Positions 38,301 through 54,364 of a stretch of DNA of 64,000 nucleotides are shown piece by piece. This stretch comes from Candidatus Latescibacterota bacterium (GTDB lineage Bacteria > Latescibacterota > UBA2968 > GCA-2709665): positions 1,152,001-1,216,000 of the forward strand of contig OZ252100.1 of assembly GCA_965248435.1 (NCBI GenBank), read 5' to 3'. A program made the position numbers and the translations under genes. The notes below the pieces were generated by a model, which worked only from the letters and a program-made list of their open reading frames with translations, was not told where the DNA came from and did no database searches. How positions within the stretch are numbered: the stretch's first letter is position 1; each line of letters opens with the position of its first letter.

Positions 38301-38728
38301 TTGAACCCGACTTCCTAGAGGCCCGAATCAAGGGACGCCCCTCACTCGCTTTGGAATTGAGTGACCCTGGCTTCGCCAGCAGTATCCTGATCAGCGAGTT
38401 AGTTCGAATCTGTGAAGAGAAAGACGAGTATGCCTATGGTGAGCATTGCGTCGAAGTCGCCAAGGTCCTTTTGCAGATTGGAGCTGGTGAGGGAATAGAC
38501 AAGCTAGTTTGCCTTCTTGGAAATGAAAACACCCCTGACACACTTCGAAGTGGGGTGGCAAGAGCGATGAAGGAAGTTCAACCATTCAGGGCTATCGAGG
38601 CTTTGTCTTGTTTGATCGGTGTGAAATCATTGAGGCCAGAAATCCTGGGTTTACTACACAACATTTCGGTTGAGACAGGAATAAGAATCACCGAGGACTT
38701 AATCCAGACATCTCCTGTTGGGGAGTAG
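35348..38728 (+). CDS. HTH-NACHT NTPase-HEAT repeat protein (NLR/STAND-like)
   Basis: Walker A GEAGLGKST, Walker B FLFDHLD, NPL.L, FYHPLLRDFF, long HEAT array. Confidence 0.88.
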   Translation: MKPIQSKEEFDELACEHGFKTRRELLAACKKVEGIKKSTLEKIRSQNYRNFGRVTLRALAELLSLVGKEITPSELDIKLGWIEPVTGENTLRAGQDTGRDTVAEKLATLSESLRAKLSAIHYEDRNLKRLTVGHKGANSSEDDEVITVAQLSRKKCALVIGEAGLGKSTLLDDIARYSALNNRIPVYVDLSIRIVEELEHFESHVWACAQSYRGVDNVAFSPLDSKSTDVVFLFDHLDLSPRPSANEIPEVVRLVNSFLNKQGRLKERAQFIVCCRTNFDSYYRKLHPSFDCFELLNLNSEDNIPRLLEAHGVPSLLSDSLRERELLDFAKNPLRLVLLAEIYKANTEDGKEIRILKESDIYDQHVDLHIEREIRERELKAPKRLVKRLLARLAFESFTSAIPGAQEFRRGWAVDFLQEILPKAVGTSQINGSLVIEGLISGGLITLSSDGRRFEFYHPLLRDFFCALHLARNNSQANALEILLAKAGDPEKRLGPEWEKVFLLYAGLVKDVTPLVAALADKEEVQDDIFRTNLLLAGKCLASSTLSHDNPTYTQVMDEVWEMFLQAEDPNFLGEAPEVLGSYTSPSFIDDLFTKLRSRDKGTQCRSLIVLSLLATRSGTVTQQLLSLLDVSHRRIRSIRTELVEILADLHCNDAVQPLVKLLGDSSGDLKGTVARSLARLGTRNAIEALVGLLRQNLEDDSWRFVEFALVHSKSEIAVELLGELLLDEDVPWEARLRAMTPLALIGSKKAIEVISWGLETELKGLIIAVLALTRSNRVVELLKRLLEDEDVRTQTIWTLAWIGTPEALEPLISLLNDKTHDLALCETIVRRLRYCEAVRNTTFDLSGALEALLQLLNNPDVEFKADVITILRAPEACGLLVNLLETSDPEIQRAAVRALGRNGCEEAVNNLVKLFSHRIWDAEEPWPLGRVILHSIESIGTPEVVSVLQGIASDGSVEEVYRMDALESLDKIDSGGGHLQDQDVEPDFLEARIKGRPSLALELSDPGFASSILISELVRICEEKDEYAYGEHCVEVAKVLLQIGAGEGIDKLVCLLGNENTPDTLRSGVARAMKEVQPFRAIEALSCLIGVKSLRPEILGLLHNISVETGIRITEDLIQTSPVGE

Positions 38729-39150
38729 GAATGCGTACGTGCCCTTCGGTGGTAGGTGGTATGTGACGCGTATACTAGAACTGACCAAGACTTTTGTAGA
38801 TTGTCTAGACGCCAGTGAAGTAGCTCAGGTAGTTATGAGAGTAGGGCTCTCAAACAGGCTATGAAATCGAAGATGAGGAAGGTTGGCAGAGACACCTCCT
38901 TGTTCAGGCAATTTTGTGGGAGAATTTCGCAGAACCTGTTAAGGAAGGTGTGACCACTCGCCTCATTTACCTGCTGCTGACACCCATATCACTAAGGTCC
39001 TAGCAAGTTCTTGATTTTCTTAAGACTCTCTTGCCTGCAAACAAAGTCACAGTCTCTTGTATATCTAGAAATATCTAGAAAACCTCTCAAAGCATACCCG
39101 CCGATTAGAATTAGTTTTGGCTGTTGGAAATTCTTAGTGGCCTTGCTTAG

Positions 39151-39909
39151 TCTTTCAAGAAGAGACCCAATAACCTCTTCGCGGAGCTCTCTGGATATGC
39201 AAGGGACCTCTTTGAAAATGGACGCACAGCAGTAATTAGAAGTGACAACAGAGATCAGATTCTTAATTCCTTTGAAATCCCCAAGACTGTTTTGCAGAAA
39301 GTTGACAAGCTCACCCTCTACTTTGGTAGAAAATCTGAGTATCCTGGTTCAAGCATACCCGTAAATGGAGCAACGCATTATCCAATTGCTTATGCGAAGA
39401 ACGCAAAGGAGTTCTCATATCTACTGCAGCATATAGAGGGTGCAGAATTATACGGTCCAGGAGATGCGCTGACAATGAAGGGTTGGGAACGATTTCAAGA
39501 AATTGAGGAAAGGCGCCCATCCAGCAGGAATTGCTTTGTTGCGATGTGGCTTGACAAGAGCCAGGATGAGATATATGAGAACGGCATTGAGAAGGCTGTT
39601 AAGAAAGCGGGCTATCAACCGGTTAGAATCGACGAGGTCGAACACCTAAATAAGATTGATGACCTTATCATCGCTGAGATTCGCAGGAGCAAGTTTGTGG
39701 TGGCTGAGTTTACAGGACATAGATAGAATGTGTATTTCGAATCTGGATTTGCGATGGCGCTTGGCTTACAGGTGATACGTCTCTGCAAGGAAGATGAAAT
39801 CAACGATGCACATTTCGACACCAGGCAATACAACCACATTACCTGGAGAGATGCTGGCGATCTTTATGCAAAACTGCTAAACAGCATTAGAGCCAACATA
39901 GTTGACTGA
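39151..39909 (+). pseudogene. Disrupted TIR/nucleoside-2-deoxyribosyltransferase-like gene
   Basis: CFVAMW...IRRSKFVVAEFTGHR*NVYFESGFAMALG...HFDTRQYNHI with an in-frame TAG at 39724-39726; 5' region also broken. Confidence 0.75.
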
Positions 39910-39962
39910 CTCGGTTCGAGGAAGCCGCCTTTACTATTTTCCAATTTGAAAGAGCCTGGACT

Positions 39963-41252
39963 ATGCAAGAACCGACTTCTACACTTGCCGACATCGCTGC
40001 CTATTGCGCCATCATTGGAGTGCTATTCTCCGTTGTTTACGCCGTCTGGAGAAGGAGGTCAGTGGCTTTCGTCTCTATAGGTCTAATTGTGATTGGCGCT
40101 TCAGTGATTGCCTACAAGAGCGCTTGGCTTCGTGCGTTGGAGATTGTTGGAGGCCTTCCAGGTCTGTTCTTTTCTGCTTTCAAGTATGTAGCTTGGGATC
40201 ACCCCATCATTCTTGCATCTGGAATCATCGTGCTGCTTGTGGCCAAGAATCGGAGGCTTGCAAAGGTGGTTACTGGTTTAAGAGAAAGGCTGAAGAGCAC
40301 TGGATTGGATAAGCCTTCTGGTCCCTTAGAACTGTTCGAGACTGAAATAAATCAACAGATGGATCGCCTAATTTCCCACCTGCCAAGAGAATGGACTCCC
40401 AAAGAAGCATTCCAGAAAGGATGGGCGGGCTGCGACACGTTAGAAGTTCCGGCAGAAGAGCTCCTCAGACCCTTCGTGCTCACCCTTAGATTGCATCCCC
40501 AAAAAAACAACGATTGGAGAGCTGGAGTTTTCTTCTTTAAGGATATGAAAAGAGATTCCCCCAGAGTCATCTTCCACGCCTCTCGGGACACTAATCATAT
40601 GGGGGAGATTGGATATTCTGCTTATCTCTATTGGGACCAGGACAAACTCACGCTTCGAGATGCAGAAGATGCTCTGAAGCCACCAAAAGCAATCTGCGGC
40701 TTGTCTCTTGGTTCTGGATTGATGAGGCTGGTCTTCCTTAAGCACTGCTTGATTCTCTCTCTCGACGACGTAGCCTGGGTGTTGACCAACGACCATTTGG
40801 AGATTGAGAACCTTGGAAATCCGTATCTAGCTCACTGGTGGGAAGGTGGGTTCTCGCAAGTCTTCTTTAAGGATGTTAGTGTTCAAAGAACCGTATCGAA
40901 TGCAGAGATACTGCTGTTAGAGCATCTCGCCAAAACTACCGGAAGGTTGGTTAGCACTATCAAGATGAACCCTAAAGTGCTCGAAGCTTTTGAGAAGCTT
41001 CGATTTCTTCGCTCCATCTTGAACAAGAACAAGTGGGACACGACCGTGTTGTATAGAGAGCTCAGAGATTTCCTTATGGAGAACAAGATGAAGCATCCTC
41101 AAGTAGACGTGGATGCTCTCCCAACCTTTGATTCTGACGCGGCTGAACAGGCCATATTGCTTGCTTGGTCCAGAGGATTTCTGACTCCACTTAAGCTTGG
41201 AACGGATGATCTCGGGAACGTCTTCCTGAAGTTCAATCCTGAAAGCCAGTAG
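39963..41252 (+). CDS. Membrane-anchored hypothetical protein
   Basis: N-terminal TMs followed by a soluble domain. Confidence 0.65.
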   Translation: MQEPTSTLADIAAYCAIIGVLFSVVYAVWRRRSVAFVSIGLIVIGASVIAYKSAWLRALEIVGGLPGLFFSAFKYVAWDHPIILASGIIVLLVAKNRRLAKVVTGLRERLKSTGLDKPSGPLELFETEINQQMDRLISHLPREWTPKEAFQKGWAGCDTLEVPAEELLRPFVLTLRLHPQKNNDWRAGVFFFKDMKRDSPRVIFHASRDTNHMGEIGYSAYLYWDQDKLTLRDAEDALKPPKAICGLSLGSGLMRLVFLKHCLILSLDDVAWVLTNDHLEIENLGNPYLAHWWEGGFSQVFFKDVSVQRTVSNAEILLLEHLAKTTGRLVSTIKMNPKVLEAFEKLRFLRSILNKNKWDTTVLYRELRDFLMENKMKHPQVDVDALPTFDSDAAEQAILLAWSRGFLTPLKLGTDDLGNVFLKFNPESQ

Positions 41253-41627
41253 CTTTTCTACAGAGAAACTCCTCTTTTCCTCTCCCTTCCAAAGTTAGCT
41301 ACCCAACTACAGCAGAAACCCATAAAAGGCACTCTCCAGAGCCAGCTAACCCTTTAAGGCTCTCTGCTGGACCTCCCGCGGGTTCCCGCACCCTCCTGCA
41401 GCCACTTCCTCCGAAGAAAACATCTCATCCTGAAATCATAAAAGCCACTCTTCTGAGAGGAGCTAGGCATTTAAGGTTTCGGATGAAAGCGGTTTCTCAA
41501 GCTCAACCACTTGAGAGCCAGAAAACCATTCCTGAAGTCATTCTCCTTTTCTGTCTCCTTCTATTGGAATTGAAACAGTGGGGTTCATTGAGAAAAATGA
41601 GCTACTAAAACTGTGAGGTGATGTGGA

Positions 41628-41987
41628 ATGACATCAAACAAGAACGATTGGGTTTCAATGGAACCTGAAATTTGGAAGTATGAAAACAAAGGAGACGAGC
41701 TCGAAGGCGTGTTAGTTGCCAAGATTCCTAATGGTGGGAAGTTTGGGAATGAGAGCTATCTCATAGAAAACAAGGCTGGGAGATTTACTGTGTTTGGAAC
41801 AACAATCTTGGAGAGGTTGATGAAGACAGTAGATGTAGGAGCTGAAGTGAGAGTCGTCTACAACGGCATTGGAAAGAACAAGAAGGATGAAGATATGAAG
41901 CTGTTCTCCGTGTTCCAGAAAAAAGCAAGTGTGGAAGAAAAGAGTGAAGGAGAGGGTGGAATTCTCTCTTCATCTGGTGGTGATTGA
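41628..41987 (+). CDS. Viral-type OB-fold ssDNA-binding-like protein
   Basis: W..E..GDELEG...TVFGTTIL...VRVVYNG...K.F.V pattern, acidic tail, GAGGTGA RBS. Confidence 0.6.
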   Translation: MTSNKNDWVSMEPEIWKYENKGDELEGVLVAKIPNGGKFGNESYLIENKAGRFTVFGTTILERLMKTVDVGAEVRVVYNGIGKNKKDEDMKLFSVFQKKASVEEKSEGEGGILSSSGGD

Positions 41988-42141
41988 GATGGGCAAGATG
42001 AAAAAATACAGAACAAAGTGCTGGATTGAAGTTGAGCAAGAAGAGGATGTGTTAATGAACAAGAAAGAAGCAGAAGAAGAGCTGGAACATCTCCAAACTC
42101 TACATCCAGACAATAGGTATGAAATTGAAGAGGTGGACTGA
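41929..42141 (+). CDS. Small acidic hypothetical protein (start about 41989)
   Basis: GGTGA RBS; operon position. Confidence 0.5.
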   Translation: MWKKRVKERVEFSLHLVVIEMGKMKKYRTKCWIEVEQEEDVLMNKKEAEEELEHLQTLHPDNRYEIEEVD

Positions 42142-42144
42142 AAA

Positions 42145-42993
42145 ATGCAACAGACACTATTCCAACGCGGACTGAGCCAGAGTAGAGGAGAAGCAGCCGA
42201 AGTAGAACTGGAAAAGAAGCAAGAGCAACAACCAGCAGTAAAGGACTCGAAAGGAACAGACGAGCAAACTAAAGCCTATTCAGATTTCATTGATGAATGC
42301 GAGGCAAATAACACTCCATTCAGAGCTGTGTTAATTGAGGCTATAGTGAATACAACCTTGAGCGGAACAACCAGAATTCTATCTACATCGATTTCGGAAT
42401 TGGCTATGTGGGGATGTGGTGGAGACTACCAGAGCGAAGATGAGATTCTTGGAGAGAAGCAGACAGTATGTAAGGACTGCTACTTTGAGGATGATGAGAT
42501 GTTCTTCACTACTCAAATCAGAGCAGAAAACATAAGGCTTTTCGTAACAGACCAAGCAAGAGTGTGTCTTGAGCAAAGGGGCATTGACATTGATGGTGTT
42601 ATAGAAAAATGGACAGCAATTCAAAACACACTACCGAGCGAAGAACAGATAAGAGACTTTGCAAGGTTTACTGAAATCAGAAATGCACTTCATTCATTAG
42701 GCTGTCACATTACATCATCCGAAGACATTGGAGTGAAGAAAGAAATAGACATCTTGAATCAAGCCATCAGAGCTAAACTTGGAATGCGAGAGAAATATGG
42801 CAATAAACTTGAGCAGTGTCCTCTTGGTTTTTCTGAGAATTCAATACAAGAACTGCTGGATAGAAAAGCTGAGATTGTTGCTAAAGGGAAAGAGCTGGAA
42901 AGGGAGGGCAACGTAATTGTCGAGAAATATAGACCTGGATGGTATGAAGATGGGTATTTCAATGATGTGAAGTCCCAATCAAGGTTGGACTAA
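42145..42993 (+). CDS. Hypothetical protein
   Basis: 282-aa ORF with GAGGTGG RBS. Confidence 0.65.
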   Translation: MQQTLFQRGLSQSRGEAAEVELEKKQEQQPAVKDSKGTDEQTKAYSDFIDECEANNTPFRAVLIEAIVNTTLSGTTRILSTSISELAMWGCGGDYQSEDEILGEKQTVCKDCYFEDDEMFFTTQIRAENIRLFVTDQARVCLEQRGIDIDGVIEKWTAIQNTLPSEEQIRDFARFTEIRNALHSLGCHITSSEDIGVKKEIDILNQAIRAKLGMREKYGNKLEQCPLGFSENSIQELLDRKAEIVAKGKELEREGNVIVEKYRPGWYEDGYFNDVKSQSRLD

Positions 42994-43099
42994 CATACCA
43001 ATACCCCCATTAACATTCATAAGCTTGAACTACGAAAAGGAGTAAAGAGGTGTATGAGAAATCACAACAAAGACAAAAGAACCAAGTGATGAGCAGATT

Positions 43100-43903
43100 T
43101 TGGATAGAACCAAGAGCGGCTGGCTACGTCCGTATCTCCTGGCTTTGGACGATATGTTCAGCAAACGCTGGAACTATTGGCTGAGAACTCTGGATGAAGG
43201 GAAAGTCTTGGAGGAGAGGATTCCGCAGATTGAATGGTTGGGGCAAGGAGAAAAGGAAACGAGGAAAAACCTACAGGATTGTTTGGACTATGTTCACCAC
43301 CAGCGTAGAGATGATACGTTCAGCCAATTTACAGACTGGTTGCTCTATGGATTTGGAGACTCTGCACAGAGAGAGTTTCCGAAGAAAGTTGATGATAATG
43401 TCAATGCCCATTGGTATAAGACATTTAATATGGGTCTGATGCTGAAGCATCCCTACGATTACCTTGGAGAAATCGCCGCAGAGCTCTATGGCAAAGGAAA
43501 ATGGAATTCAACTGGCTATTTCCCAACACCATTGGATGTGTGTGTTATGATGGCGAAGATGACAATGAATGGAGCAAGAGAGGAGATGAAGACAGCTTCT
43601 GTGTGCGACCCTTGTGTTGGCTCTGGCAGGATGTTGATGGTTGCTTCAAACTCCTCGCTAAATCTTTACGGGATGGACATTGACTACAACGTCCTAAAGG
43701 TCTGCAAGGTGAATATGTGGATGTATGTCCCCTGGGCTATTCACCGTCCTAAGATTGAGGGGTTGGAATCAGCAGTGGGGATTGGGGGAGGAGATAGTCT
43801 CGCTCCTTCTTACACAGAACCAATCCAGAAAGTAACGCCTGAAGTCCAGCAGCAGCTTTTGAGTCAAAGGGGAGAGAAGCAGACGGATTTGTTCGGTAGC
43901 TAA
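43100..43903 (+). CDS. N6-DNA-methyltransferase-like protein lacking an evident catalytic NPP(Y/F)
   Basis: GYFPTP, VCDPCVGSGRML, YGMDID, GDSL. Confidence 0.72.
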   Translation: MDRTKSGWLRPYLLALDDMFSKRWNYWLRTLDEGKVLEERIPQIEWLGQGEKETRKNLQDCLDYVHHQRRDDTFSQFTDWLLYGFGDSAQREFPKKVDDNVNAHWYKTFNMGLMLKHPYDYLGEIAAELYGKGKWNSTGYFPTPLDVCVMMAKMTMNGAREEMKTASVCDPCVGSGRMLMVASNSSLNLYGMDIDYNVLKVCKVNMWMYVPWAIHRPKIEGLESAVGIGGGDSLAPSYTEPIQKVTPEVQQQLLSQRGEKQTDLFGS

Positions 43904-43912
43904 CTAAGGAAG

Positions 43913-44215
43913 CTAGCGGAAGAAACTCTCAACATCTTTTTTTCTTCTCTTTGCGAGAATCCTCTCAGCATACTTTTTTACTTTCTCTTTCGGATAATCC
44001 TTGTGCTCCTTGCAGAAAGAGAATTCTAACCCCTTTACAACCTCTTCTTTTGCACAACACTTAGGGCAAACCTGCCTCTCTTTGCCAGGTTCTTCGTTCC
44101 AACATCCTAAACACGGTTCCTGCCAGAATTCACCTACTATTGATTCGCTTTTGCAAGAAGAACATATCCTGAATTGAAGTCTGATTCCTTGATTCATCTG
44201 TATTTCTAACTTCAC
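43913..44215 (-). CDS. Cys-rich small protein
   Basis: CSSC, CLGC, CPKC, CKEH. Confidence 0.5.
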   Translation of the reverse strand: MKLEIQMNQGIRLQFRICSSCKSESIVGEFWQEPCLGCWNEEPGKERQVCPKCCAKEEVVKGLEFSFCKEHKDYPKEKVKKYAERILAKRRKKDVESFFR

Positions 44216-44340
44216 AAGTAGTTATATGTCTTCCCCTCCAAGTAACCTCCAGCCTTAATGAATTCTATCTCACACCAGAAAGAGTGAGCCGAAAGGTTTA
44301 TATACTCCGAATGCTTCATTCCTGAATGGGGTAATGTAGA

Positions 44341-44586
44341 ATGCTAACAAAAATGACAAAGGGAAGGCAGGTCTCAATCCCTGCCGAGCTTCGGAAGAAA
44401 TTGGAAATCGAAGATGGCACTCTCTTGGTGTGGGATGTAAATGCGAAAAAGGATGCATTGATACTGAAGCCTGTGAAGACTGGAACTCTCTCGGAACTGT
44501 TCAAAGAAGCGGATGGTATCAAGAACAAGACTAAGAAATCGGTCAAGGGAATTCTGAAGGAATATGATGAACAAATGCTTCATTGA
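44341..44586 (+). CDS. AbrB/MazE-family antitoxin
   Basis: KMTKGRQVSIPAELRKKLEIEDG; overlaps the PIN gene. Confidence 0.88.
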   Translation: MLTKMTKGRQVSIPAELRKKLEIEDGTLLVWDVNAKKDALILKPVKTGTLSELFKEADGIKNKTKKSVKGILKEYDEQMLH

Positions 44587-44971
44587 CGCTGACGTGCTGA
44601 TAACAGCGATCGTCGGGAAAGGAGAGAAGGCGAAAAGGTCAAGATCCTTACTTAGAAAGATTGAGAAAGGTGAGCAAAGTTTCTTAACAGACGCTCTCGT
44701 CTTGAGCGAAGTTTGGTATGGAATTGAACGACAGAAAGGAAGAGACTTCGCTGCGAAAGTGATCAAGGATTTCTTGAGCTTTGGCGAGCTGGAGGTAATT
44801 CCAGTTGACAGGAATGTTCTGTTTGAAGCGCTCAGACGAGCTGAAAAGAAAAGAAAACTGGTCGGCAATGATCTGATTCATTTGACTATTGCTCTTCTGG
44901 AAGGTGCTTCTGGAATTTACTCTTATGATAAAGACTTCGATGGATTAGAGGTGAAGAGAATTGAGCCGTAG
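44564..44971 (+). CDS. vapC: PIN-domain toxin (VapC)
   Basis: FIDADV, VLSE, NDLIH, SYDKDFD. Confidence 0.88.
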   Translation: MMNKCFIDADVLITAIVGKGEKAKRSRSLLRKIEKGEQSFLTDALVLSEVWYGIERQKGRDFAAKVIKDFLSFGELEVIPVDRNVLFEALRRAEKKRKLVGNDLIHLTIALLEGASGIYSYDKDFDGLEVKRIEP

Positions 44972-45475
44972 GAAGAGATTGAGTAAGCTGTTTGGTCTAT
45001 GCCCGAAACTAGAGCCAGGGCAGAAAGTAAAAGACAGACTGAGGAATAGGGAATTTCAGGACTTAGGAAATGTGGAGTTTGTCAAGGGGTAGAAAGTCTA
45101 ATGGCAAATGTTGGGAAAGTGCGGAAAAGAAGAACTGACAAGGATATTGAAATAGATATGGACTTGCACTTTGACCACTTGGATCGAGGGAGAAAAGAGA
45201 ATTGTCCTTGTGGTGTGTGCAGGGCAAAGGAAGAGTAATGAATTCTAAGTTGATTTAGATTTGGCAGAAGCCCTTCCCTTGAATAGAGTATCCGGCTCAA
45301 GCTTGCATTCCAACTTAAGCCAGTCCCTTTACTCAGGCAGATGAGGTAAAGGCTTAAGAGAATGCCAGCGTTGCGAGCACGGGAGATAGGCAACTGGGTT
45401 GCGGTAGGGAAGATTTCTGCGAATGTATGGATTGAAGACTCCACTCCTTGGTCTTGAAAGGCAGAAACCAGGGAG

Positions 45476-45718
45476 GTGGTTGAGATGAATGAATTAACAG
45501 CACAGCAAGAGGATTACTTGCTGGAGTCTGGAATGGAAAAGTTTAGAGAATGGAAGGAACGTCTCGATAGAGAAGATGAGGAAGACAGCGATGACGGATT
45601 TGAGTTTGATAACTCGAAAGCGATGGAGATAGCTCAGGAGGTGCTGAAGGCACGTAGAAGGAAGAAGGAGAATGAAGAGTTGGCGAGGCAGATGTTAGAG
45701 AAGGAACGAATAGCTTAG
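45476..45718 (+). CDS. Small charged hypothetical protein
   Basis: GGAGGTGG RBS. Confidence 0.5.
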   Translation: MVEMNELTAQQEDYLLESGMEKFREWKERLDREDEEDSDDGFEFDNSKAMEIAQEVLKARRRKKENEELARQMLEKERIA

Positions 45719-46247
45719 TTCCTTGTTTTTTTTCTATTCGAAAAAGAGGGCATCCAAGGTTGGATAGAGGGATGTTGGATACAGAATGATGGGAGAGGTT
45801 TAACCCTAATGGGCATTGGGGGATGAAACTCGTTTCATCCCAGGGAAGAAGCCGGAGGGTTTGATGAGGGGAATGATAGCCTTCGGTATGCTCAGGTTTT
45901 TGGGGGTGCTAATGGTGTGTAAAAAAGGAAAGTTGAAGGTGGGAAGGGAGATGATGAGGATAGGAAAGAATGGATGGGAATGGAGGGAGTAGGACCCCTG
46001 GCGGGGGAATGGATGGGCCCCCTTCGGGGGGAGGGAAAAGGAGGATGGAATGGAGGCGGGAGAATGAGGGAAAAGGTTTAGTTATAGAGATGAGGGAAGA
46101 GAAACAACGCCTATAACTATAACAAATAAAACAAATCTAACTGATTGTAGTTCAACCACATATACGCGAATTCAATTTAGCGGTATTTTTCCCCCTAAAC
46201 AAATACCTGCCATACTATTTAAGGCTCCCAGATGCTAAATATGCAAA

Positions 46248-46607
46248 ATGGTGAGGAAGGAAATACCGAGGCTGTATGACACTGAGAATATTCCTGTTGA
46301 AGAGAAAGTAATATTCGAACACTACTTCCTGCCAGGCACAGCTTGGGAGTGGTATATAGCTGAGTTAGATGATACAGGCAGGACCGCTTTTGGCTATGTG
46401 TGTTCTGGCCTAGATCCCAATTTTTCTGAGTGGGGCTATATTGATATGAAGGAGCTGAGAGAAGTCAAAGCCAGAATTGATGTAAGGCAAGCCAGATCTG
46501 GTACTAGTGTTGGAAGTTTTGAACAGGCTGTGGAAAAGGATATAGAGTGGTTTCCAAAGAAAGTTAAGGAGGTTGACAGCTTAATCCAGAGATTAGGACT
46601 TGGGTAA
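46248..46607 (+). CDS. DUF2958-like protein
   Basis: IPRLYDTE, YF.PG.AWEWYIAE, AFGYV, EWGYI...EL. Confidence 0.75.
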   Translation: MVRKEIPRLYDTENIPVEEKVIFEHYFLPGTAWEWYIAELDDTGRTAFGYVCSGLDPNFSEWGYIDMKELREVKARIDVRQARSGTSVGSFEQAVEKDIEWFPKKVKEVDSLIQRLGLG

Positions 46608-46635
46608 AAAGAGAATCTTAATTTCTAGTTCCTTA

Positions 46636-47166
46636 TCAAAGCATCCCGGTTTCTTTAAAACTTAACAAACTACTAGGGGGAGAGAAGATCAAATGGTCTA
46701 GCAAACTAATCCCAACAATTTCTCCTGCTTCCTCCAATCTCTTTGTTAACCCAATATCCTCCTGGCTAGGAGTAGAATCTCCAGATGGATGATTGTGGCT
46801 ACAGATAATAGCAGCAGCACTAAGGAGGATGGCGGGTTTGAAAACTTCTCTTGGATGCACAAGAGAGGCGTTCAAAGAGCCAACCGAAACTAAGTCTATT
46901 CCCATAAGTTGATTACGGGCATTAAGAATCAGAGAGTAGAAATATTCCTTCTCTGATCCATTATAGAGATGGTTGAGGATAGATAAACTATCAGACGGAT
47001 TGCAGATGCTTACTCTCGGCTTATAGGCCTGCTCCCGCACAACCTTTACCCCCAAACCTCTAAAGTCATACAAACTCTCATAATGCCTTCCTCTGAAGAC
47101 TGGAACTTTGATCGAGCTGCTAGGGGAGGGGAAGAGCTCTAGCTGCTCTCCCTTTCTATAGCTCAT
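46636..47166 (-). CDS. RadC-like JAB-domain protein
   Basis: VHPREVFK, HNHPSGD.TPS.ED, LLDHLI. Confidence 0.92.
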   Translation of the reverse strand: MSYRKGEQLELFPSPSSSIKVPVFRGRHYESLYDFRGLGVKVVREQAYKPRVSICNPSDSLSILNHLYNGSEKEYFYSLILNARNQLMGIDLVSVGSLNASLVHPREVFKPAILLSAAAIICSHNHPSGDSTPSQEDIGLTKRLEEAGEIVGISLLDHLIFSPPSSLLSFKETGML

Positions 47167-47597
47167 TCCTCACCCAATACTTTTTGAGTTTCAAGCTTCT
47201 CTAGAGACAATCCTTCTCCAATTTGCTTGATTTCATCTACTGAGAAATACCGATAGGTCTTTCCGTTCTTGCTGAAAGTCCGAAAGTTAGCCTTGATCCT
47301 GCATACCCCTTCTTCCGAAACTCTGTGGCTCAAGTCAAGAATCACTGGGTCTAACTCATCAACTTTTACACTCTGCTTGTTTGTCAACACCACTTTCTTC
47401 CCGCCAATTTCCTGAGTAATCTCTCTTTGCGTAAATGGTCTATGCACGATACTCCCATAGTTTGTCTCAAACACAACTCTGGTAGCTCTCCACACTCTAT
47501 TTATCCTGTCATGAAATCTCTCCACTGAAACTTTATGGATATCAATTAGTTTTTTCTCGCTCATTCTTCTCACCTCCCTTTTCCCTTGGTTTCCCAT
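47163..47597 (-). CDS. Hypothetical protein (start likely MSEKK)
   Basis: GGAGGTGA RBS; operon with radC. Confidence 0.55.
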   Translation of the reverse strand: MGNQGKREVRRMSEKKLIDIHKVSVERFHDRINRVWRATRVVFETNYGSIVHRPFTQREITQEIGGKKVVLTNKQSVKVDELDPVILDLSHRVSEEGVCRIKANFRTFSKNGKTYRYFSVDEIKQIGEGLSLEKLETQKVLGEE

Positions 47598-47997
47598 CTA
47601 GGTAAATCCTAACAATGGGTGCGTCATTCTCGTCCTGCTCACGATAGCAGTAGAGTTCTTGGCTTCTCTTTAGATTGGCCTGAAGAGCGATTGACTTCAA
47701 AATCCTCATCCTATGCACGCCTCTTGCTATATCCACACTCGGTGCCCAGGAAGTTGCGTTGATCCACTTTCTGCTCACCTTCCGTGGCTCTCCACTTAGG
47801 TAGACCGCGATAGTCGGTCTCTTGCCTTTGTATTCGTAGTAGTTGTGCATAATCCTGCCCTGCTCCAGACATAAGCCTCTGGCTAGCTCATTCGGAAAAG
47901 TCCAACGATACGTCACCCCTTTGTTCACTTGACAAGATGTCACCCAGGAAAATCGCTCTGGATGCGCATCAAGTATTTTTTGTCTCATAGCTTCCAC
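47542..47997 (-). CDS. Protein with two tandem AbrB-like repeats
   Basis: Internal duplication SW..S.....Y/HR......A...L......Y...P.(I/V)..YL.G.PR. Confidence 0.55.
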   Translation of the reverse strand: MEAMRQKILDAHPERFSWVTSCQVNKGVTYRWTFPNELARGLCLEQGRIMHNYYEYKGKRPTIAVYLSGEPRKVSRKWINATSWAPSVDIARGVHRMRILKSIALQANLKRSQELYCYREQDENDAPIVRIYLDGKPREKGGEKNEREKTN

Positions 47998-48929
47998 CCC
48001 CTAATTTCAGCTCAGTCACAAACGAGATTCCAGAACTCCCCATAAGACGCTAACGCTTTTTAATCGCTGCGGCTATGTGGCGGGTTTGTCGGGTGAAATT
48101 GGTTTCACATTCCAACCAAATCCTAACATCCAACTTCGCTTTGGAGATTGTTTGTTCTTTTAGGTAAATGGGCAACAGAACTTATGAGTCTTCACACCAG
48201 AACAGGTGTCAGTCTGATTCTCACGTATTCCTTCACGAACACTCTTAAACTGAAGACCTCTCTCTTGAGCTATGACAGAAAGAAAATCATTGGAACGGAG
48301 AAACCACGCGCTCTTGAAGGACTTGAACGCTAAGGTGGATTATCTGATTGAGAGTAGAAGGGAGTATGTCTTTGGCAGGAGATTCAGCGGAGAGTATGAG
48401 CCTGAAGGTCGGGTAGGATGAGCAGTCCAGATATTGAATCTGCAAGAAGTGAAATTCTTGCTATCCGGAGCAGACTCCTGGCTCGGGTTCAGAAGCTGTG
48501 CAAGGAAGCTGAAGGTGAGCTCGAAACTCTCTTGAAGAAGTGAGAGTATGGAATTTCACATCTATATTCTCTACTACAGAAATGTTTATATCCTTCGAGT
48601 GATTAGTGCAGGTAGACAGAATGAATGGAGTGAGGGATTTAGAATTCTTCAAGTGTGCCCGGCTAGGGCGTTCTGCTCCTATTCCAAATCCTCAATAAGT
48701 TAAGAGGGAATGGGATTAGGTGTGATCTGCTCGGCCAGAGCGTTCTCTTTGAATTCTAAATCCCCCCCACGTCTCAGACCTTTGTATTTGGCAAGTAGGG
48801 GTCAATCTGGGTGGGAACCCGTGTAGGAGTCACTCGCCCTAGCTGGGCGTATAAGCCCCTGGACTGAATCCCTCCCTACTGCTAAAAAGGACAGAACCAT
48901 TTGGTATCAAAGGAGGTGCTATGTAAGAA

Positions 48930-50195
48930 ATGGCAGAAAACGACATCTACAACAACCAAGGGAAATATGAGCGCTACAAAAAGAACTTGGAGAGTTTCCT
49001 TTTGCCGCCAGAGCAAAGGCCGAGGAGGGAGTCTTGGACATCAAGATATTACTGTAAGAATCCCGACAATTTGAAACACTTCAGAAGGCTTTTCATCGTC
49101 GTAGAGGCCCAGGATATAAGCTATATCAGGAGATGCAGGTTAATTGAAATCCTGAGAGTCATTACTTACTATGCAGAGAAAGAGCTAAGTCTGTTGGATC
49201 GAGAGGATGTGGATGTGATTATCGCTGGGATGCACAAGACACACAAATCCCCTGAGTCAAAGAAGTTCTTCATCCGAGTGATTAAATGGCTCTGGAGGAA
49301 GCTGTTTCCTGAGTTAGACGAAAGAGGAAGGATAGATGAGACAATCACGCCTTATGCGGTTCGACATCTCAAGGCAGAGATAGATCGAAGCAAACTGACA
49401 ACCACGAAAGACAGACTCTATTGGACTGAGTATGTTGCATATTTGAGGGGACTAACGAATGACCCGATGATGCAATGTTACCTGGGAATGCACTTTGAGT
49501 GTTATGGCAGACCTCAAGAACTCTGTTATCTCAAACGTTCAAACTTTCAGATTTTTGATGATTATGCCATTGGAGATGTGAGAGAGCACGGAAAGGAAGG
49601 GCCAAGGCGTCTCCTGATTATCGACTCCTTTCCCTACTTCATCCGCTGGTATAATCTCCATCCTTCTAAAGACACAGATGCCTACTTCTTTCTCAACGAA
49701 CACGGGAAGCAGTTCACGCCTGGAGCTGCGAATAAGAGAATTCGGAGCGTGACCAAGCTTCTTGGCTTGAAAAAGCACATCACCAACTACACTTTCAAGC
49801 GCAGTGGTGTAACCATTTCGGCGGAGCAGGGAGAACCTTCAGTATTGACACAGCATAAGGCTGGATGGACCTCTGACAAGCAGCGTAAGACCTACATACT
49901 TACCAGTCAATCAGATGCTTTCAACACAGAGCTTGCCAGGCGCGACCTTCTGAAAGACTCAAACTACAAGCCCTACTCCCCCAAAAACAGAACTTGCCAA
50001 TTCTGTGATACATTGAATGGATTTGCCGAGGAGGTTTGTGTAACCTGCAAGAGGCCATTGGATAGGACGAAAGTAAAGGAGCAGATTAGGAAGCAGAAGG
50101 AAGAGGCTGTGGCGGAACATCTCAAAAGCCCTGAAATGGAATGGCTGATGAAGACTGTGAAGAAATTTGATGTGGCCTTAGCCCAGAAGAAGTGA
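48930..50195 (+). CDS. Tyrosine integrase with C-terminal zinc ribbon, archaeal type (element B)
   Basis: GRPQEL, GK, YTFKRS, AGW...Y, CQFC...CVTCKRPL; AAGGAGG upstream. Confidence 0.85.
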   Translation: MAENDIYNNQGKYERYKKNLESFLLPPEQRPRRESWTSRYYCKNPDNLKHFRRLFIVVEAQDISYIRRCRLIEILRVITYYAEKELSLLDREDVDVIIAGMHKTHKSPESKKFFIRVIKWLWRKLFPELDERGRIDETITPYAVRHLKAEIDRSKLTTTKDRLYWTEYVAYLRGLTNDPMMQCYLGMHFECYGRPQELCYLKRSNFQIFDDYAIGDVREHGKEGPRRLLIIDSFPYFIRWYNLHPSKDTDAYFFLNEHGKQFTPGAANKRIRSVTKLLGLKKHITNYTFKRSGVTISAEQGEPSVLTQHKAGWTSDKQRKTYILTSQSDAFNTELARRDLLKDSNYKPYSPKNRTCQFCDTLNGFAEEVCVTCKRPLDRTKVKEQIRKQKEEAVAEHLKSPEMEWLMKTVKKFDVALAQKK

Positions 50196-50254
50196 CCTTC
50201 CTGCATTACCTCCCGCCATAGAATTCTTAGTATCCCATCTGCTCCAAAGTAGGG

Positions 50255-52450
50255 ATGAACTCTTACACTCTGATTCCAAATGCAAAGATTCTAAGGAAAG
50301 CAGTTCCTGTTACTTCATCTCTAGAACAAAGAGTGAAGGCCACGCAGGTTGAGAAGCTGTCTGACCTTAAAGGGATTGTGAAGTCACTCGGCCAGGACCT
50401 TCAGCAGAGAACAATTCTCTACGGTCGCATTCTTTCAAAGCTGGAAGAATCGATTGTGAGGATTGATAACGAAATCCTACAAGGAGAAAAAGGTAGGGAA
50501 GGTGACCTGACGAGGGTAGCGATTGAGAAATTGAAGGAGCGGCAGAGAGCTTTCAAAGACATCATCCATATCAAAGGACAGATACGGCACTACGCTTTGG
50601 CCTATAAGGATTTGGGCAGGGCTGTTTCTCTTCTTCCAAGTTCTTATCTAAATCGACAACTCATCGAAGATTTGAAGCCAGTGATCGGTTTGCCGGCCGA
50701 TTTGCTGAAGCTGAACTACGATTTCAAAACTCAAGAAACCATCCTTCTCCAACCGCCAACGCCGGAGCAGTGCGAGGGAGAGTTTTCCTTGGGTCAGGTG
50801 ATGTATGATGACAAGGAACTGGGGAGAGAGTTCGGGTTAAGCAGAGAGGATTTTACGAAACATCTCTTAGTCTGTGGCGAGAGCGGAAGTGGTAAGACCA
50901 CATTCATCCGTCATATGCTGAAGCAGCTCATTGACAAGGTCCCATTTTGCGTGTTTGACTTCAAAAGAGACTACAGAGGACTTGCGCAACATCCTGAAGT
51001 TGAGGTTATCAGATGGGAGCAGCTTACCTTTAATCCCCTCCGTCCACCTGGGCCTCTGATTGAATGGCTCCAGAATTTCAGTGATGCCCTATCCCAAGAC
51101 AGTGCCTTGATGATTGGTTCCAGAGGCTTCTTGCTAGAACAGTTGGTCTCTGTTGTGAGGCAATTCAAGGAGGGACTTCCGAGCTTGAGGGATCTACTGA
51201 CACTCCTGAATACTCTCAAAATTTCCGGCTTCTATAGGGAGGCGTCCTACCTGTCCGTGGTCAAGAATCGTCTAAGGACTCTCTGGATTCAGCTACCCAA
51301 GACAGTTGGTTGTAGAGAAGGTTTTCAACTAGAATCTTTGCTTGGCAAGAATGTCATTTTGGAACTGGACGGACTTGGCATTGAGGCCCAGAACTTCCTC
51401 GTCACCACCATACTTTCCTGGATTTACCTGTATAGGATGGCTCGACACCAGAGAGGTAAGTTGAGGCACGTCTTGGTTTTGGATGAGGCCAAGAGAATCT
51501 TCGATCGCAACAAGGAGCTGAGGCCTGCCGAGGGTGTTCCTCAGATAGATATTCTAACTTCCAGAGTAAGAGAGTTTGGAGAAGCCTTGCTGGTGAGCGA
51601 CCAGGAGCCAGTGGCCCTGACGAATTCCATCAAAGCAAACTCTTATACGAAAGTGTGTTTGAGGCTGGGCAACGGCAAGGACATTGAAGACTTTGCAAAA
51701 GCAATGAGCCTGAACAGAAGGGACTTCATCTCTAAGCTTAAGACCGGGCAAGCCATTGTCAGAGTAGACGGACTCAATCCTTTTCTTGTCAATATTCCAT
51801 TTGTGAAAGCCGAAGCCGATTTCACCCCAAACAACCGTTTTCAGCCTGTTTCTAAACCGATTTCTCCGATTTCACCTCCAGATAAATTATCTCTTGTTGA
51901 TAGGACCTTTCTATTAGACATCGTCAGTTCTCCACTTGCAAGCGTGACTCAACGATACCAACGACTCAAAACTAACCCAAGAGAAGGCAACCAGAGGAAA
52001 AGAAAACTCATTGAACAAGAATTCATCAAGGAGGTGAGTATTGTTGATGGCAGGAAAATTCTGTTTTTGGAGCTAACTCCGAAAGGAGCTTTATCCCTTG
52101 GCAGAAATCCGAGAAGGGGCTGGAGAGAAGGCGGGATTGAGCATCAGTATTGGAGAGGAAAAGCAGCTCAACATTATCTCAAGGAAAGCTATAAAGTAGA
52201 GGAAGAAGTGTCTGTTGGCGAAGGAAAGAAACTGGATGTCGTAGTTGAGAAACAGGGGAAGAAAGTAGCCATTCAGGTTGAAACAGGAAAGTCTGACATC
52301 AAGCAAAATATAGAGAACGCTCTTAATGCTGGCTGCTCTTCTGTCATCTGCATTCCAACAAATCCGGAGGCAAGAAAAATCATTACAGGAATTGTTAAAG
52401 CATTCTATCCTGCTCCTGTTTTTCTCAAACTTCCACAAACTCTGAGATAG
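50255..52450 (+). CDS. HerA/VirB4-like ATPase fused to wHTH and a PD-(D/E)xK-like domain
   Basis: GESGSGKT, FDFKRDY, VLDEA, VREFGE...DQ; C-terminal LTPKG, GGIEHQYW, LDVV...VAIQVETGK. Confidence 0.85.
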   Translation: MNSYTLIPNAKILRKAVPVTSSLEQRVKATQVEKLSDLKGIVKSLGQDLQQRTILYGRILSKLEESIVRIDNEILQGEKGREGDLTRVAIEKLKERQRAFKDIIHIKGQIRHYALAYKDLGRAVSLLPSSYLNRQLIEDLKPVIGLPADLLKLNYDFKTQETILLQPPTPEQCEGEFSLGQVMYDDKELGREFGLSREDFTKHLLVCGESGSGKTTFIRHMLKQLIDKVPFCVFDFKRDYRGLAQHPEVEVIRWEQLTFNPLRPPGPLIEWLQNFSDALSQDSALMIGSRGFLLEQLVSVVRQFKEGLPSLRDLLTLLNTLKISGFYREASYLSVVKNRLRTLWIQLPKTVGCREGFQLESLLGKNVILELDGLGIEAQNFLVTTILSWIYLYRMARHQRGKLRHVLVLDEAKRIFDRNKELRPAEGVPQIDILTSRVREFGEALLVSDQEPVALTNSIKANSYTKVCLRLGNGKDIEDFAKAMSLNRRDFISKLKTGQAIVRVDGLNPFLVNIPFVKAEADFTPNNRFQPVSKPISPISPPDKLSLVDRTFLLDIVSSPLASVTQRYQRLKTNPREGNQRKRKLIEQEFIKEVSIVDGRKILFLELTPKGALSLGRNPRRGWREGGIEHQYWRGKAAQHYLKESYKVEEEVSVGEGKKLDVVVEKQGKKVAIQVETGKSDIKQNIENALNAGCSSVICIPTNPEARKIITGIVKAFYPAPVFLKLPQTLR

Positions 52451-52919
52451 CTCTCACAAATCTAACAATTTCTATCCTATTGAATTAGTGTTAACGCTTG
52501 GGCTTTCCAGACCTTTTCTTCTCTTCTTCTAAATCAATACACTCCTGAAACATACGGAGGAGTTTTTTGCAAGATCCACATACTCACAATCAAATGGCAC
52601 CTGCATTGAAATTATGCCCTACCTTCACTTGTAGCATTTCCTTGCTTTAGGGAGAACTGCTATGGAGGACTCCCGCCGGTGGGTAGGGTAGGTCAATCCC
52701 CATTGACTCTCCCTTTTGGTAGGTGTTGGGGAAACACTAAATGTGATACAAAGGAGTCCGCGCTCGAATGCCTTTGTATCATAAACGCAAAAATCAATGT
52801 CCAGGCTATGGTAATACCTGACAGTGCCATCAGTAGCTCATTCGCTCAGGATTGTGTGACCATTTAGAACCTTGATTATTGCTACACTTGCTGAAAGCCA
52901 GGCCAGATAGGTCTCCAAA

Positions 52920-54212
52920 CTATCCCAATACTCCCCTAAGCCACAAAAGAAATCTTTGTAACAAAACTGGTTCTACGCATTGATCGTCTACACATAAATT
53001 GCTGCTACATTCATAACTGTTATTACAAGGTATGTCCGCACCGAACTGCTGCTTGAATTGTTTATCAATATCGCAAAACTCATTTTCAATCCTTACCCCG
53101 ATTGGGATGCAATCATTATAACCGCAACATCCCTCACAGATAGGCTCTGCCATACAAGCACCATCTTTGCACCCATAGGGACACTCATAAGGTTCGCCCT
53201 TAAGCCTATCATCATCACCGCACCAATGCTCAGTTAATGTTATGCCATCCTCCTGGCAAGAATCTGTGAATGGATTTACAGCGCTCACGTCGTAAGTAAA
53301 GCCTTTGACATAATAATCTTTTCCCCCATCTGAATCGCTACATTTATCTGTTTCCTGAATGCAAGCACCCTCTTTACACCCATAGGGACACTCATAAGGT
53401 TCGCCCTTAAGCCTATCATCATCACCGCACCAATGCTCCATAACTCTCTTATCACTTAGATTTCCCTCAGGATAATCTCTTAAGCATCTATCAATAAAGG
53501 GTTTCGTACCCCCCTTGTCATATGTGGAGCCTTTCATGTAGTAACTCCTTCCTCCATCATCATCTCTACAACTCAAGACGTATTTATCCATAACCTCCCC
53601 GATTATCAATGCTTGTTCTTCAGGGTCCGCAAATTGCAATTTTCCAGAATTCAAGTCAGTATAAAAAATGGCCGTATTTGATCCATCTTGAAACAGAAAG
53701 ATGTGTTTTGTTTTTACGATGTCTTGTCGTAATCCTGTAGACTCATCTATAGAATAGATGCTAACTTCTCCTTCCAAGGATTGAAGACTGAATCCCTTAA
53801 TCGATGTATAAGCCTCCCATCCAGCAACATCGCTTAAATCGATAGAAGGATGAAAGCTCAATAAATACGGCGCAGCATATCCATCATCTTTGAACTTCAG
53901 TGTTTGTTGAGCAGAATCTGCAAATTTGAATCTATTGGTATCGACATCCTTATAGAAGATTCCTAGATCCTTTTCATCTTCATATACCAAAACACTACGT
54001 GTTCTTACACCTTCTTCTACAAGCTGTATTGCATTTGCTTCATTGGTTTGAACAATGAACGAGCTAGATGATGAATGATCTTCCCATCCTGGCGAATCGC
54101 TTAAATCGGCAGAAGGATCATACTTCATTCTATAAGAGATTGCCTCCACCAAGCTAGGTACATTTAGAACGAATATAAATACCACAAGTAGGGATAAACG
54201 TGTCAGTTTCAC
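52920..54212 (-). CDS. Secreted Cys-repeat surface protein resembling DPANN archaeal proteins
   Basis: Signal peptide; two C.D.DGG..YY.KG.T...EHWC...CPYGC..GAC repeats; C.NSYECSSN.C tail. Confidence 0.75.
   Translation of the reverse strand: MKLTRLSLLVVFIFVLNVPSLVEAISYRMKYDPSADLSDSPGWEDHSSSSSFIVQTNEANAIQLVEEGVRTRSVLVYEDEKDLGIFYKDVDTNRFKFADSAQQTLKFKDDGYAAPYLLSFHPSIDLSDVAGWEAYTSIKGFSLQSLEGEVSIYSIDESTGLRQDIVKTKHIFLFQDGSNTAIFYTDLNSGKLQFADPEEQALIIGEVMDKYVLSCRDDDGGRSYYMKGSTYDKGGTKPFIDRCLRDYPEGNLSDKRVMEHWCGDDDRLKGEPYECPYGCKEGACIQETDKCSDSDGGKDYYVKGFTYDVSAVNPFTDSCQEDGITLTEHWCGDDDRLKGEPYECPYGCKDGACMAEPICEGCCGYNDCIPIGVRIENEFCDIDKQFKQQFGADIPCNNSYECSSNLCVDDQCVEPVLLQRFLLWLRGVLG
53170..53438. repeat. Perfect 62-bp intragenic direct repeat
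   Basis: 53170-53231 equals 53377-53438 (period 207 bp, 69 aa). Confidence 0.9.
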
Positions 54213-54364
54213 TACTTGAGGAGAGAGGGTAGTATTTATACATCTTTTGGTGTGAATCTTTGATAGGAGAACTCATAACAGATCCGGAGTGAAGGGAATG
54301 GTTTAGGTTAAGGCCCTGTCAATTTTGAGCAAAAATCACGAGTCGTCTCGAGTTAGTCATTAGG

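Follow-up and report, generated by a model that had tools for sequence, protein, structure and literature searches.

A probable small integrated element with an integrase family common to DPANN archaea and bacteria, nested in a genomic island of a Latescibacterota bacterium

The common view of mobile genetic elements is that each stays within a single domain of life, even if individual genes frequently pass between domains. The stretch of DNA analysed here (the window, 64,000 nucleotides, positions 1,152,001 to 1,216,000 of contig OZ252100.1 in assembly GCA_965248435.1 of a Candidatus Latescibacterota bacterium) raises the question of whether an element has crossed that border, since an earlier reading of the letters without database searches (the sequence-only reading) had described its positions 41.3–54.2 kb, hereafter the segment, as a DPANN-like archaeal mobile element embedded in a bacterial tRNA island. 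We find that the segment does not form a single, discrete archaeal element. Judging from its protein relationships, the part with archaeal relatives is the contiguous block at 48.9–54.2 kb, which encodes a zinc-ribbon tyrosine integrase, a predicted ATPase-nuclease and a Cys-repeat protein (Table 1). With a probability of roughly 0.55, we read the right part of the segment (~46.2–54.2 kb) as a small cryptic integrated element whose integrase belongs to a family of both domains, and which is old and nested in a bacterial island. The three-gene block points to old gene traffic between the domains, not to an assembly error or a fresh archaeal insert. Below, G000 denotes the genome that holds the window, and coordinates preceded by C1 are those of its contig.

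The integrase is the gene on which this reading turns, and the MAENDIYNN start and zinc ribbon picked out by the sequence-only reading are both present. In an alignment of 31 sequences, M1, D5, I6, Y7 and the four ribbon cysteines (C356, C359, C370 and C373) are invariant, as are R194, K222, Y287, R291 and Y322, which probably form the catalytic set; W313 is nearly so. The window protein reaches 23.6 bits against PF00589 (gathering cut-off 27.1), and a precomputed PF00589 match is present in 117 of 120 homologues among the matches listed. When the family profile was compared with solved structures, the nearest was archaeal XerA (5hxy, 5.3e-7). The catalytic domain is homologous to those of XerA and of the ThalV2 and Haladaptatus plasmid integrases; unlike XerA, however, the window protein is ~120 aa longer, carries an extra conserved N-terminal domain and the C-terminal ribbon, and scores 25.2 bits against the XerA equivalog cut-off of 220. 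For this analysis we have defined a DPANN-centred Zn-ribbon integrase family by the MAENDIY N-terminus, the C4 ribbon and a length of ~420 aa, and the window protein fits this definition.

The family is of limited size, with 159 clusters (50% identity) at E ≤ 1e-30 among 1.84 billion representatives, and among the 159 relatives returned by the protein search the named ones are all Woesearchaeota, Nanoarchaeota or 'archaeon'. The closest relative anywhere, on an ENA contig in the same protein search, is 57% identical, and neither the genome scan nor the JGI metagenome scan gave one above 47%. When a single genome of each species was scanned with the 31-sequence profile, 80 loci were kept (these and other loci are numbered with an L below), with taxon labels taken from the record titles of metagenome-assembled genomes. 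Of these, 62 are archaeal-titled (chiefly Woesearchaeota and Nanoarchaeia/Nanoarchaeota, then Aenigmatarchaeota, 'archaeon' and ~15 'uncultured Methanosarcinales') and 18 are bacterial-titled, from many phyla. The JGI scan yielded 43 integrase loci, of which only L156 has the ATPase and DUF2958 in common with the window. We have also compared genome samples of one DPANN phylum (201), the host phylum (168 including G000) and a second bacterial phylum (151 or 201, depending on the gene). The integrase was found in 19 of the 201 DPANN genomes at E ≤ 1e-20 (17 at ≥36% identity), in one of 168 host-phylum genomes, G000 itself with two copies, and in one of 151 genomes of the second phylum, G172, the centre of that sample, which had been chosen because it carries the gene. 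The only matches in a collection of 50,697 phage records were two archaeal viruses, and the only match in one of 72,556 plasmid records was a haloarchaeal plasmid, all at 21–28% identity, and the profile found no relatives among 2.9 million IMG/VR contigs.

Immediately downstream lies the 731-aa fusion protein. Its ATPase part matches DUF87 (4.5e-9), CedD (8.8e-10), the PADLOC model mad8 (1.1e-21) and HerA-like PDB chains, and several anti-phage HerA models below cut-off. Residues 520–731 align with separately encoded 294-aa proteins and share an invariant H, E, D and E in an EHxYW...D...IExETGK pattern. The AlphaFold (AF2) model (pLDDT 84) has a winged helix followed by an alpha/beta domain, for which Foldseek returned weak matches (E 4e-4 to 1e-2, TM ~0.3) that are consistently restriction-endonuclease-like folds (AF1548, VC1899, Cdn1, EcoT38I, the R2 endonuclease domain, MspJI, Bax1 and NucS) and MarR-type winged helices. 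In bacterial loci the ATPase is usually a 445-aa protein with a separate 294-aa partner matching the window C-terminus, whereas the two are fused in the window and in DPANN. The fused form occurs in 16 of the 201 DPANN genomes (E < 1e-27) and in 5 of the 167 other host-phylum genomes, so that, as far as these matches go, its distribution does not discriminate between domains. The arrangement resembles archaeal HerA-NurA, the bacterial anti-phage HerA systems and mad8 of the MADS system in joining a HerA/FtsK-superfamily P-loop ATPase to a nuclease-type partner; unlike those pairs, the window partner combines a winged helix with a PD-(D/E)xK-like domain, is linked to an integrase, and scores far below the cut-offs of the curated models.

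The third gene of the block encodes the Cys-repeat protein listed by the sequence-only reading, and the protein has two copies of the motif C.D.DGG...CPYGCK.GAC; at the DNA level the repeat pair is 80 nt long, 96% alike and 207 nt apart. Its domains are present in 97 of the 201 DPANN genomes, against none of the 167 other host-phylum genomes and none of 201 genomes of the second bacterial phylum, and a 418-aa DPANN open reading frame (ORF) has the same repeats, C-terminal domain and tail (40% identity over 77 aa). The repeat modules and the C-terminal domain thus appear DPANN-type in the genomes sampled. The attribution of the integrase and this protein to DPANN (Woesearchaeota/Pacearchaeota-like) genomes in the sequence-only reading is borne out, as to the DPANN affinity, by the locus titles and the genome counts.

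The remainder of the segment behaves differently. Going by its gene matches, the left 7 kb (family-less ORFs, a methyltransferase-like protein, VapBC, DUF2958 and RadC) is not DPANN-like, and part of it is common to bacterial elements with the same integrase family. Homologues of the DUF2958 protein adjoin the integrase in L055, L066, L078, L047 and L156, and RadC has homologues in L055, L052, L037 and L077. The 282-aa ORF was matched in 0 of 131 DPANN genomes and found no usable Protein Atlas match. For the methyltransferase-like ORF, the match is confined to the S-adenosylmethionine-binding half, with further matches to phrog_5696 (4.9e-13) and to PADLOC MTase_I and mad2 (6e-7), and weak generic matches in 8 of the 131 DPANN genomes. 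The proposed AbrB-PIN pair is there: vapB (PF04014, 5.3e-8, 33.1 bits, cut-off 24.7) lies directly upstream of vapC (PF01850, 5.3e-14, 53.3 bits, cut-off 23.6) and overlaps it by 23 nt, as expected of a predicted VapBC type II toxin-antitoxin system.

What kind of element could this be? By gene-content tests it is neither an integrative conjugative element (ICE) nor a provirus. Searches for ICE hallmarks in 41.3–54.2 kb gave sub-threshold P-loop matches only (TraG 20.4 against 25.8 bits, TrwB 16.8 against 20.5 bits, VirB4 models far below cut-off), with no relaxase, coupling protein or VirB4 above cut-off, and no structural PHROG was found in the same interval. Actinomycete integrative and conjugative elements transfer with a single FtsK-like ATPase; by analogy, one ATPase of FtsK/HerA type that carries a DNA-binding winged helix might in principle suffice to move double-stranded DNA. 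The segment shares an integrase and toxin-antitoxin, RadC, DUF2958 and methyltransferase-type genes at a tRNA with bacterial tRNA-linked islands and integrative mobilisable elements, but differs in that its ATPase has no membrane domain and that 26 kb separate its DPANN-type integrase from the tRNA. Of the classes described so far, the nearest is that of the cryptic integrated elements defined for Thaumarchaeota, which for the most part are shorter than 20 kb and which integrate into tRNA genes or ride inside other mobile elements (Krupovic et al. 2019, PMC6563490). Like them, the window element is small, bears an integrase and is without viral or conjugative hallmark genes, and its nesting fits; unlike them, it is found in a bacterium and no att sites were found, and the MAENDIY/C4-ribbon family was not seen among those named for them.

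The host is probably a member of Latescibacterota, as the best named relatives of its LysS are from Latescibacterota (63–67% identity), Gemmatimonadota (65%) and Calditrichota (62%). Its chromosome, a 5.66-Mb contig of 56.6% GC, drops from ~0.60 to ~0.45 GC exactly at tRNA-Ala(GGC), the sole tRNA of the window, and stays low for ~100 kb. In G040, a sister genome of the same genus used for synteny, ligA and this tRNA are kept, the next ~16 kb are unrelated, and gene order matches G000 again from C1:1,278,745. This break and return of synteny mark out a variable island, from 22.4 kb to ~126.7 kb, that occupies a tRNA hotspot. A second low-GC island of ~40 kb (island B, C1:5.589–5.629 Mb) lies 4.4 Mb away on the same chromosome and holds diverged paralogues, namely an integrase (40% identity), an ATPase encoded in two parts (55%), a RadC protein (53%) and a counterpart of the 144-aa ORF (43%). 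Island B and the distal part of the first island further share a block of response-regulator/signalling and other genes at 75–97% protein identity.

Composition does not set the segment apart. Its tetranucleotide profile correlates with the left (r = 0.93) and right (0.92) island flanks and with island B (0.96), whereas the values are −0.07 to 0.26 for host core DNA and 0.63 for the pooled DPANN loci; the right flank, for all its bacterial genes, itself reaches 0.79 against DPANN. The profile flags the whole island as foreign to its host, not the segment alone, and the tetranucleotide check that had been proposed gives no separate signal. Several other signs on which the sequence-only reading had leaned also dissolve. 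The BRE/TATA-like promoter boxes are no more than chance would give, since the window has four copies of TTTAWATA where 1.69 are expected, a count attained by 8 of 100 shuffles, and only one site (44297) falls in the segment; the GGAGGTGA-type ribosome sites, taken as archaeal, are used by both domains and are uninformative; and sigma70-like sites, which had been seen in the flanks, number 15 in the whole window, compared with 22.1 ± 5.7 in shuffles, a shortfall within the noise. That the flanks are bacterial holds for the distal left flank (1–22.3 kb, core DNA), but the immediate flanks are low-GC island DNA and not host core. The boundaries placed at 41300 and 54240 have no bracketing repeats ≥16 nt, no tRNA fragment >13 nt and the tetranucleotide profile of their flanks. 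What stands of the claim of an archaeal element in a bacterial tRNA island is the DPANN-related 48.9–54.2 kb and the island at tRNA-Ala(GGC); the extension to the whole 13 kb does not, given the left 7 kb.

The neighbours of the other integrase genes help to place the window copy. A tRNA directly upstream of the integrase is the classical signature of tRNA-targeting elements. A same-strand tRNA ending ≤300 nt upstream was found at 14 of 37 archaeal loci and at 0 of 14 bacterial loci, and neither G000 copy has such a junction. The archaeal loci are chromosomal, because ribosomal protein S8e stands beside the integrase in four and ZPR1 in four, and the contigs extend up to 542 kb. Four DPANN loci (L036, at 5659–12073, L027, L044 and L028) carry a TrbC/VirB2-type pilin of a type IV secretion system (T4SS), a second pilin-like protein and a 958-aa ATPase, PrgI-VirB4/TraG-like with a CoiA-type nuclease tail, beside a tRNA-linked integrase, and in gene content they look like ICEs of DPANN archaea. 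BLASTP found no similarity between the window ATPase and the 450-aa and 294-aa ORFs of L036. If the window and island B are counted together with the 18 bacterial loci, giving 20 bacterial sources, a related HerA-like ATPase travels with the integrase in 10, RadC in 6 and DUF2958 in 4, along with several small uncharacterised families. At the 62 archaeal loci, none of these turned up at a distance of 8 kb or less from the integrase. The accessory genes appear, on these counts, to be domain-specific. The pairing of an integrase with the ATPase-nuclease is nonetheless old and found in both domains, as seen from two loci with another integrase: in L128 (host-phylum genome G010), weak homologues of the 144-aa and 151-aa ORFs and the C-terminal part of the ATPase surround a different, 403-aa Zn-ribbon integrase, and in L121, from DPANN, the fused ATPase-nuclease adjoins a 403-aa Zn-ribbon integrase 30% identical to that of L128.

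We have built two integrase trees, both by quick searches. In the first, a quick tree with the PMSF (posterior mean site frequency) model on 78 rows after four short ones were dropped, the bacterial rows need eight label changes, at least four of them forced by starred branches, and a single bacterial clade is rejected (approximately unbiased test, p = 1.6e-5; log-likelihood difference 326). The second tree was computed under LG+G4 and rooted with the two 403-aa Zn-ribbon integrases. In both, the window integrase and its paralogue form long branches among archaeal rows and have archaeal nearest neighbours, and for these copies transfer would have run from archaea to bacteria. The woesearchaeal locus L014 groups with the window integrase in the first tree. 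At this locus (7864–11676), tRNA-Ala(TGC) and the integrase are followed by a 750-aa GmrSD-type restriction enzyme and several zinc-ribbon proteins.

A number of observations weigh against our reading of the right part as an old element of a two-domain integrase family. No att repeats were found, and no direct repeat ≥16 nt brackets the element in 38.5–57.5 kb; k-mers of tRNA-Ala have no second copy within 150 kb, and blastn-short of all 48 host tRNAs gave only matches of 11–13 nt and one 16-nt match with a mismatch. As neither att sites nor element ends were found, mobility and extent are unproven. None of the 80 loci has a Cys-repeat homologue within 8 kb of the integrase, so that co-transfer of the integrase, ATPase and Cys-repeat genes is only hinted at by their adjacency. 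The archaeal-like genes carry no compositional signature separate from that of their flanks. Some of the taxon counts are soft as well: the label of the ~15 loci titled 'uncultured Methanosarcinales' could not be confirmed, and mis-binning may affect some of the short contigs, such as L065 with its 4.2 kb; Pfam matches in the flanks of L025, L065 and L014 did not confirm the archaeal titles of L025 and L065. Finally, the two trees place the window integrase differently, on a long branch (0.92–1.27), and since the outgroup-rooted tree puts the bacterial rows L055/L066, L057 and L078 basal, the family as a whole could be bacterial in origin.

If that were so, DPANN archaea would have acquired the family, perhaps repeatedly, and the window would hold an ordinary bacterial element. 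The basal bacterial rows fit this, as do the bacterial-type accessory genes and the backbone that bacterial loci of different integrase clades have in common. We nevertheless hold it to be rather unlikely, because DPANN hold far more of the family and a greater diversity of it, it is absent from 167 and 150 other bacterial genomes of the two phyla sampled, the distant relatives in virus and plasmid collections are all archaeal, the window copies sit among archaeal rows beside a Cys-repeat gene that is DPANN-specific in our samples, and the bacterial rows at the base have long branches and attach to an outgroup that is itself long. The opposite possibility, an intact DPANN integrative element spanning 41.3–54.2 kb and recently transferred, perhaps from an episymbiont, is what the sequence-only reading had favoured. 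It draws on the mostly DPANN relatives of the integrase and the Cys-repeat protein, on the fused ATPase-nuclease that also occurs in DPANN, and on the adjacency of the three genes, but is distinctly improbable: the best relative anywhere is only 57% identical and none from the genome and JGI scans exceeds 47%, DPANN affinity is lacking in the left 7 kb, bacterial loci with the integrase also have RadC, DUF2958 and the ATPase, the composition is that of the surrounding bacterial island with no att repeats, and the second copy in the genome, at 40% identity, implies a long history in the bacterial mobile pool. A third view takes the integrase and ATPase-nuclease as a domesticated defence module that is no longer mobile, which, together with VapBC and the methyltransferase-like protein, would form part of a defence island. 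Matches of the ATPase to mad8 and several anti-phage HerA models and of the methyltransferase-like ORF to mad2 speak for it, as do the STAND/HEAT nucleoside triphosphatase (NTPase) and SIR2 genes nearby and the missing att sites. However, the HerA equivalog scores are far below the curated cut-offs (NF042943, 32.7 against 800 bits; NF040819, 15 against 970 bits), and beside the mad8 match the sole MADS-like gene is the weak mad2-like ORF 6 kb off. The ATPase is moreover paired with an integrase in many loci of both domains, and the integrase keeps all its invariant residues, leaving domestication unlikely.

The least credible explanation is that archaeal reads were spliced into a bacterial contig during assembly or binning. 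The sharp GC drop at 22.3 kb and a CheckM-type contamination of 7% could be cited for it, as could breaks and loose ends of unitigs at 41422–41451, 48895 and 50197, where single contigs continue into sequence absent from G000. The reads consulted are Logan contigs of four public runs, no RNA run being among those found for the stretch; all four stem from a single sample of a single study, which may be the source of the assembly itself and so not independent. In these, word depth is flat over 38.5–58.4 kb in all four runs (for example 11.5, 12.8 and 9–11 in X1), one contig bridges 53409–57159, and overlapping unitigs join 38500–41451, 41422–41641 and 41612–50197, although no single Logan piece covers the whole stretch. 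The DNA to the left and to the right of the island matches G040 in synteny at one tRNA-adjacent locus, bacterial genes occur throughout the low-GC DNA, and a diverged paralogous module sits in island B. Because G040 synteny, flat depth, contig links and the island B paralogues combine, an assembly chimera is very unlikely, and the alternative that the sequence-only reading had kept is effectively excluded. The loose ends hint at a near-identical integrase gene in another context within the same community; those at 48895 and 50197 bracket the integrase gene almost exactly.

Under the preferred reading of an old, nested element, the following working would be envisaged. The backbone, which belongs to a family present in both domains, consists of the Zn-ribbon tyrosine integrase and of a fusion protein with a HerA/FtsK-type ATPase, a winged helix and a PD-(D/E)xK nuclease-like domain. 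The integrase lineage is centred in DPANN and held rarely by bacteria, in several separate lineages, together with the bacterial-style set of RadC, DUF2958 and small ORFs. The integrase would insert and excise the element by site-specific recombination, and the ATPase-nuclease might process or translocate element DNA, or else exclude competing DNA. VapBC could stabilise the element, RadC, DUF2958 and the methyltransferase-like protein could counter restriction on entry and so aid establishment, and the Cys-repeat protein would be DPANN-type surface cargo. Activity of the element and the role of every protein are proposed from sequence. A bolder version, which we regard as doubtful, is that the integrase and ATPase-nuclease backbone marks a family still moving between DPANN and bacteria, and that the host gained archaeal surface-protein genes through contact with DPANN cells, with T4SS-like genes as the vehicle and by repeated acquisitions; on that version the two diverged copies and the loose-end contexts would reflect such repeats.

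The compact integrase family described here has its centre of diversity in DPANN and is also present in at least four separate bacterial lineages, linked in both domains to the same HerA-type ATPase-nuclease, and the window integrase adjoins a surface-protein gene of domains found, among 570 genomes sampled, only in DPANN. A full-text literature search, in its listings and the opening lines of abstracts, returned nothing on the MAENDIY integrase family or on integrative elements common to DPANN and bacteria. The locus offers a concrete system for testing by what means DNA passes between bacteria and ultra-small archaea, and whether an archaeal-type integrase functions in a bacterial cell. It also carries a caution, as the archaeal-looking block is old, has the composition of its surroundings and lies within an ordinary bacterial island, and the 'archaeal promoters' seen by eye are not real.

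Table 1. Features of the window and of the island that extends beyond it
Feature	Position	Strand	Evidence or remarks
lysS, prfB, lolA, ftsK, tsaD, ligA	1–22.3 kb		bacterial core DNA, ~60% GC
tRNA-Ala(GGC)	22327–22402	+	ARAGORN and Rfam; left island edge
Low-GC composite genomic island, ~104 kb	22403–64000, on past the window to about C1:1,278,745		GC, gene content, synteny
119-aa ORF, no family	41628–41987	+	ORF list, Pfam
282-aa ORF, no family	42145–42993	+	no Pfam, NCBIfam, PHROG or PADLOC match
N6-adenine-methyltransferase-like protein, 267 aa	43100–43903	+	PF02384 1.8e-7 over aa 131–208
Cys-rich (zinc-ribbon-like) 100-aa ORF, no family	43913–44215	-	ORF list, Pfam
VapB(AbrB/MazE)-VapC(PIN) pair	44341–44971	+	antitoxin 44341–44586, PIN gene 44564–44971
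Purine-rich, mostly non-coding stretch	45000–46100 (1.1 kb)	+	GC skew +0.43, AT skew +0.17
DUF2958 protein	46248–46607	+	PF11171 2.8e-4
RadC-like JAB protein	46636–47166	-	PF04002 7.4e-39
Two conserved uncharacterised ORFs, 144 aa and 151 aa	47163–47997	-	one operon with radC
Zn-ribbon tyrosine integrase, 421 aa	48930–50195	+	N-terminal MAENDIY (starts MAENDIYNN), C-terminal CxxC...CxxC ribbon
Predicted fusion ATPase-nuclease, 731 aa	50255–52450	+	coiled-coil N-terminus, HerA/FtsK-type P-loop ATPase (aa ~160–520), winged helix, PD-(D/E)xK nuclease-like domain (aa ~545–720)
Cys-repeat secreted protein, 430 aa	52920–54212	-	two N-terminal ~95-aa repeats, two Cys-repeat modules (aa ~212–358), Cys-rich C-terminal domain with hydrophobic tail

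The left part of the segment also contains a 70-aa ORF without a family. An Rfam scan of the window gave tRNA only, and the purine-rich stretch between vapBC and the DUF2958 gene has no Rfam match. A remnant at C1:1,237,353–1,237,744 in the same island fuses the 3′ part of the 119-aa ORF straight to the 5′ region of vapB, without the 2.3 kb that separate them in the segment; within it, C1:1,237,597–1,237,744 corresponds to the ORF portion (78% identity at the DNA level) and C1:1,237,353–1,237,554 to the 5′ region of vapB (82%). To the right of the Cys-repeat gene, two secreted proteins were considered as DPANN-type and rejected: the protein at 54365–55339 matches 3 of 131 DPANN genomes, through one domain only, and that at 55373–56770 matches 6 of 131, also through one domain (the N-terminal ~110 aa). 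The latter is a 465-aa protein with a collagen-like G-x-x stretch, and its C-terminal domain matches phage tail-fibre PHROGs (phrog_6616, 1.4e-16).

The rest of the island consists of ordinary bacterial accessory genes. A classical integrase (24508–25686) adjoins tRNA-Ala(GGC), and the cargo includes DUF87 ATPases, a STAND/HEAT NTPase, FapA, a PAS histidine kinase, ~8 response regulators, AraC, HU and MerR, as well as an outer membrane protein, AcrB, penicillin amidase, nonribosomal peptide synthetase modules, a DDE transposase, an insertion sequence, ankyrin, SIR2 and patatin. The STAND-type NTPase just left of the segment (35348–38728, 1126 aa, with C-terminal HEAT/Arm repeats) matches PADLOC HEAT-ARM_XIII (1.1e-11) and is likely a defence gene. 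Within the host core region, an IS30-like transposase (HTH_38 and rve domains, 4140–5123) lies in the interval between lolA and ftsK.

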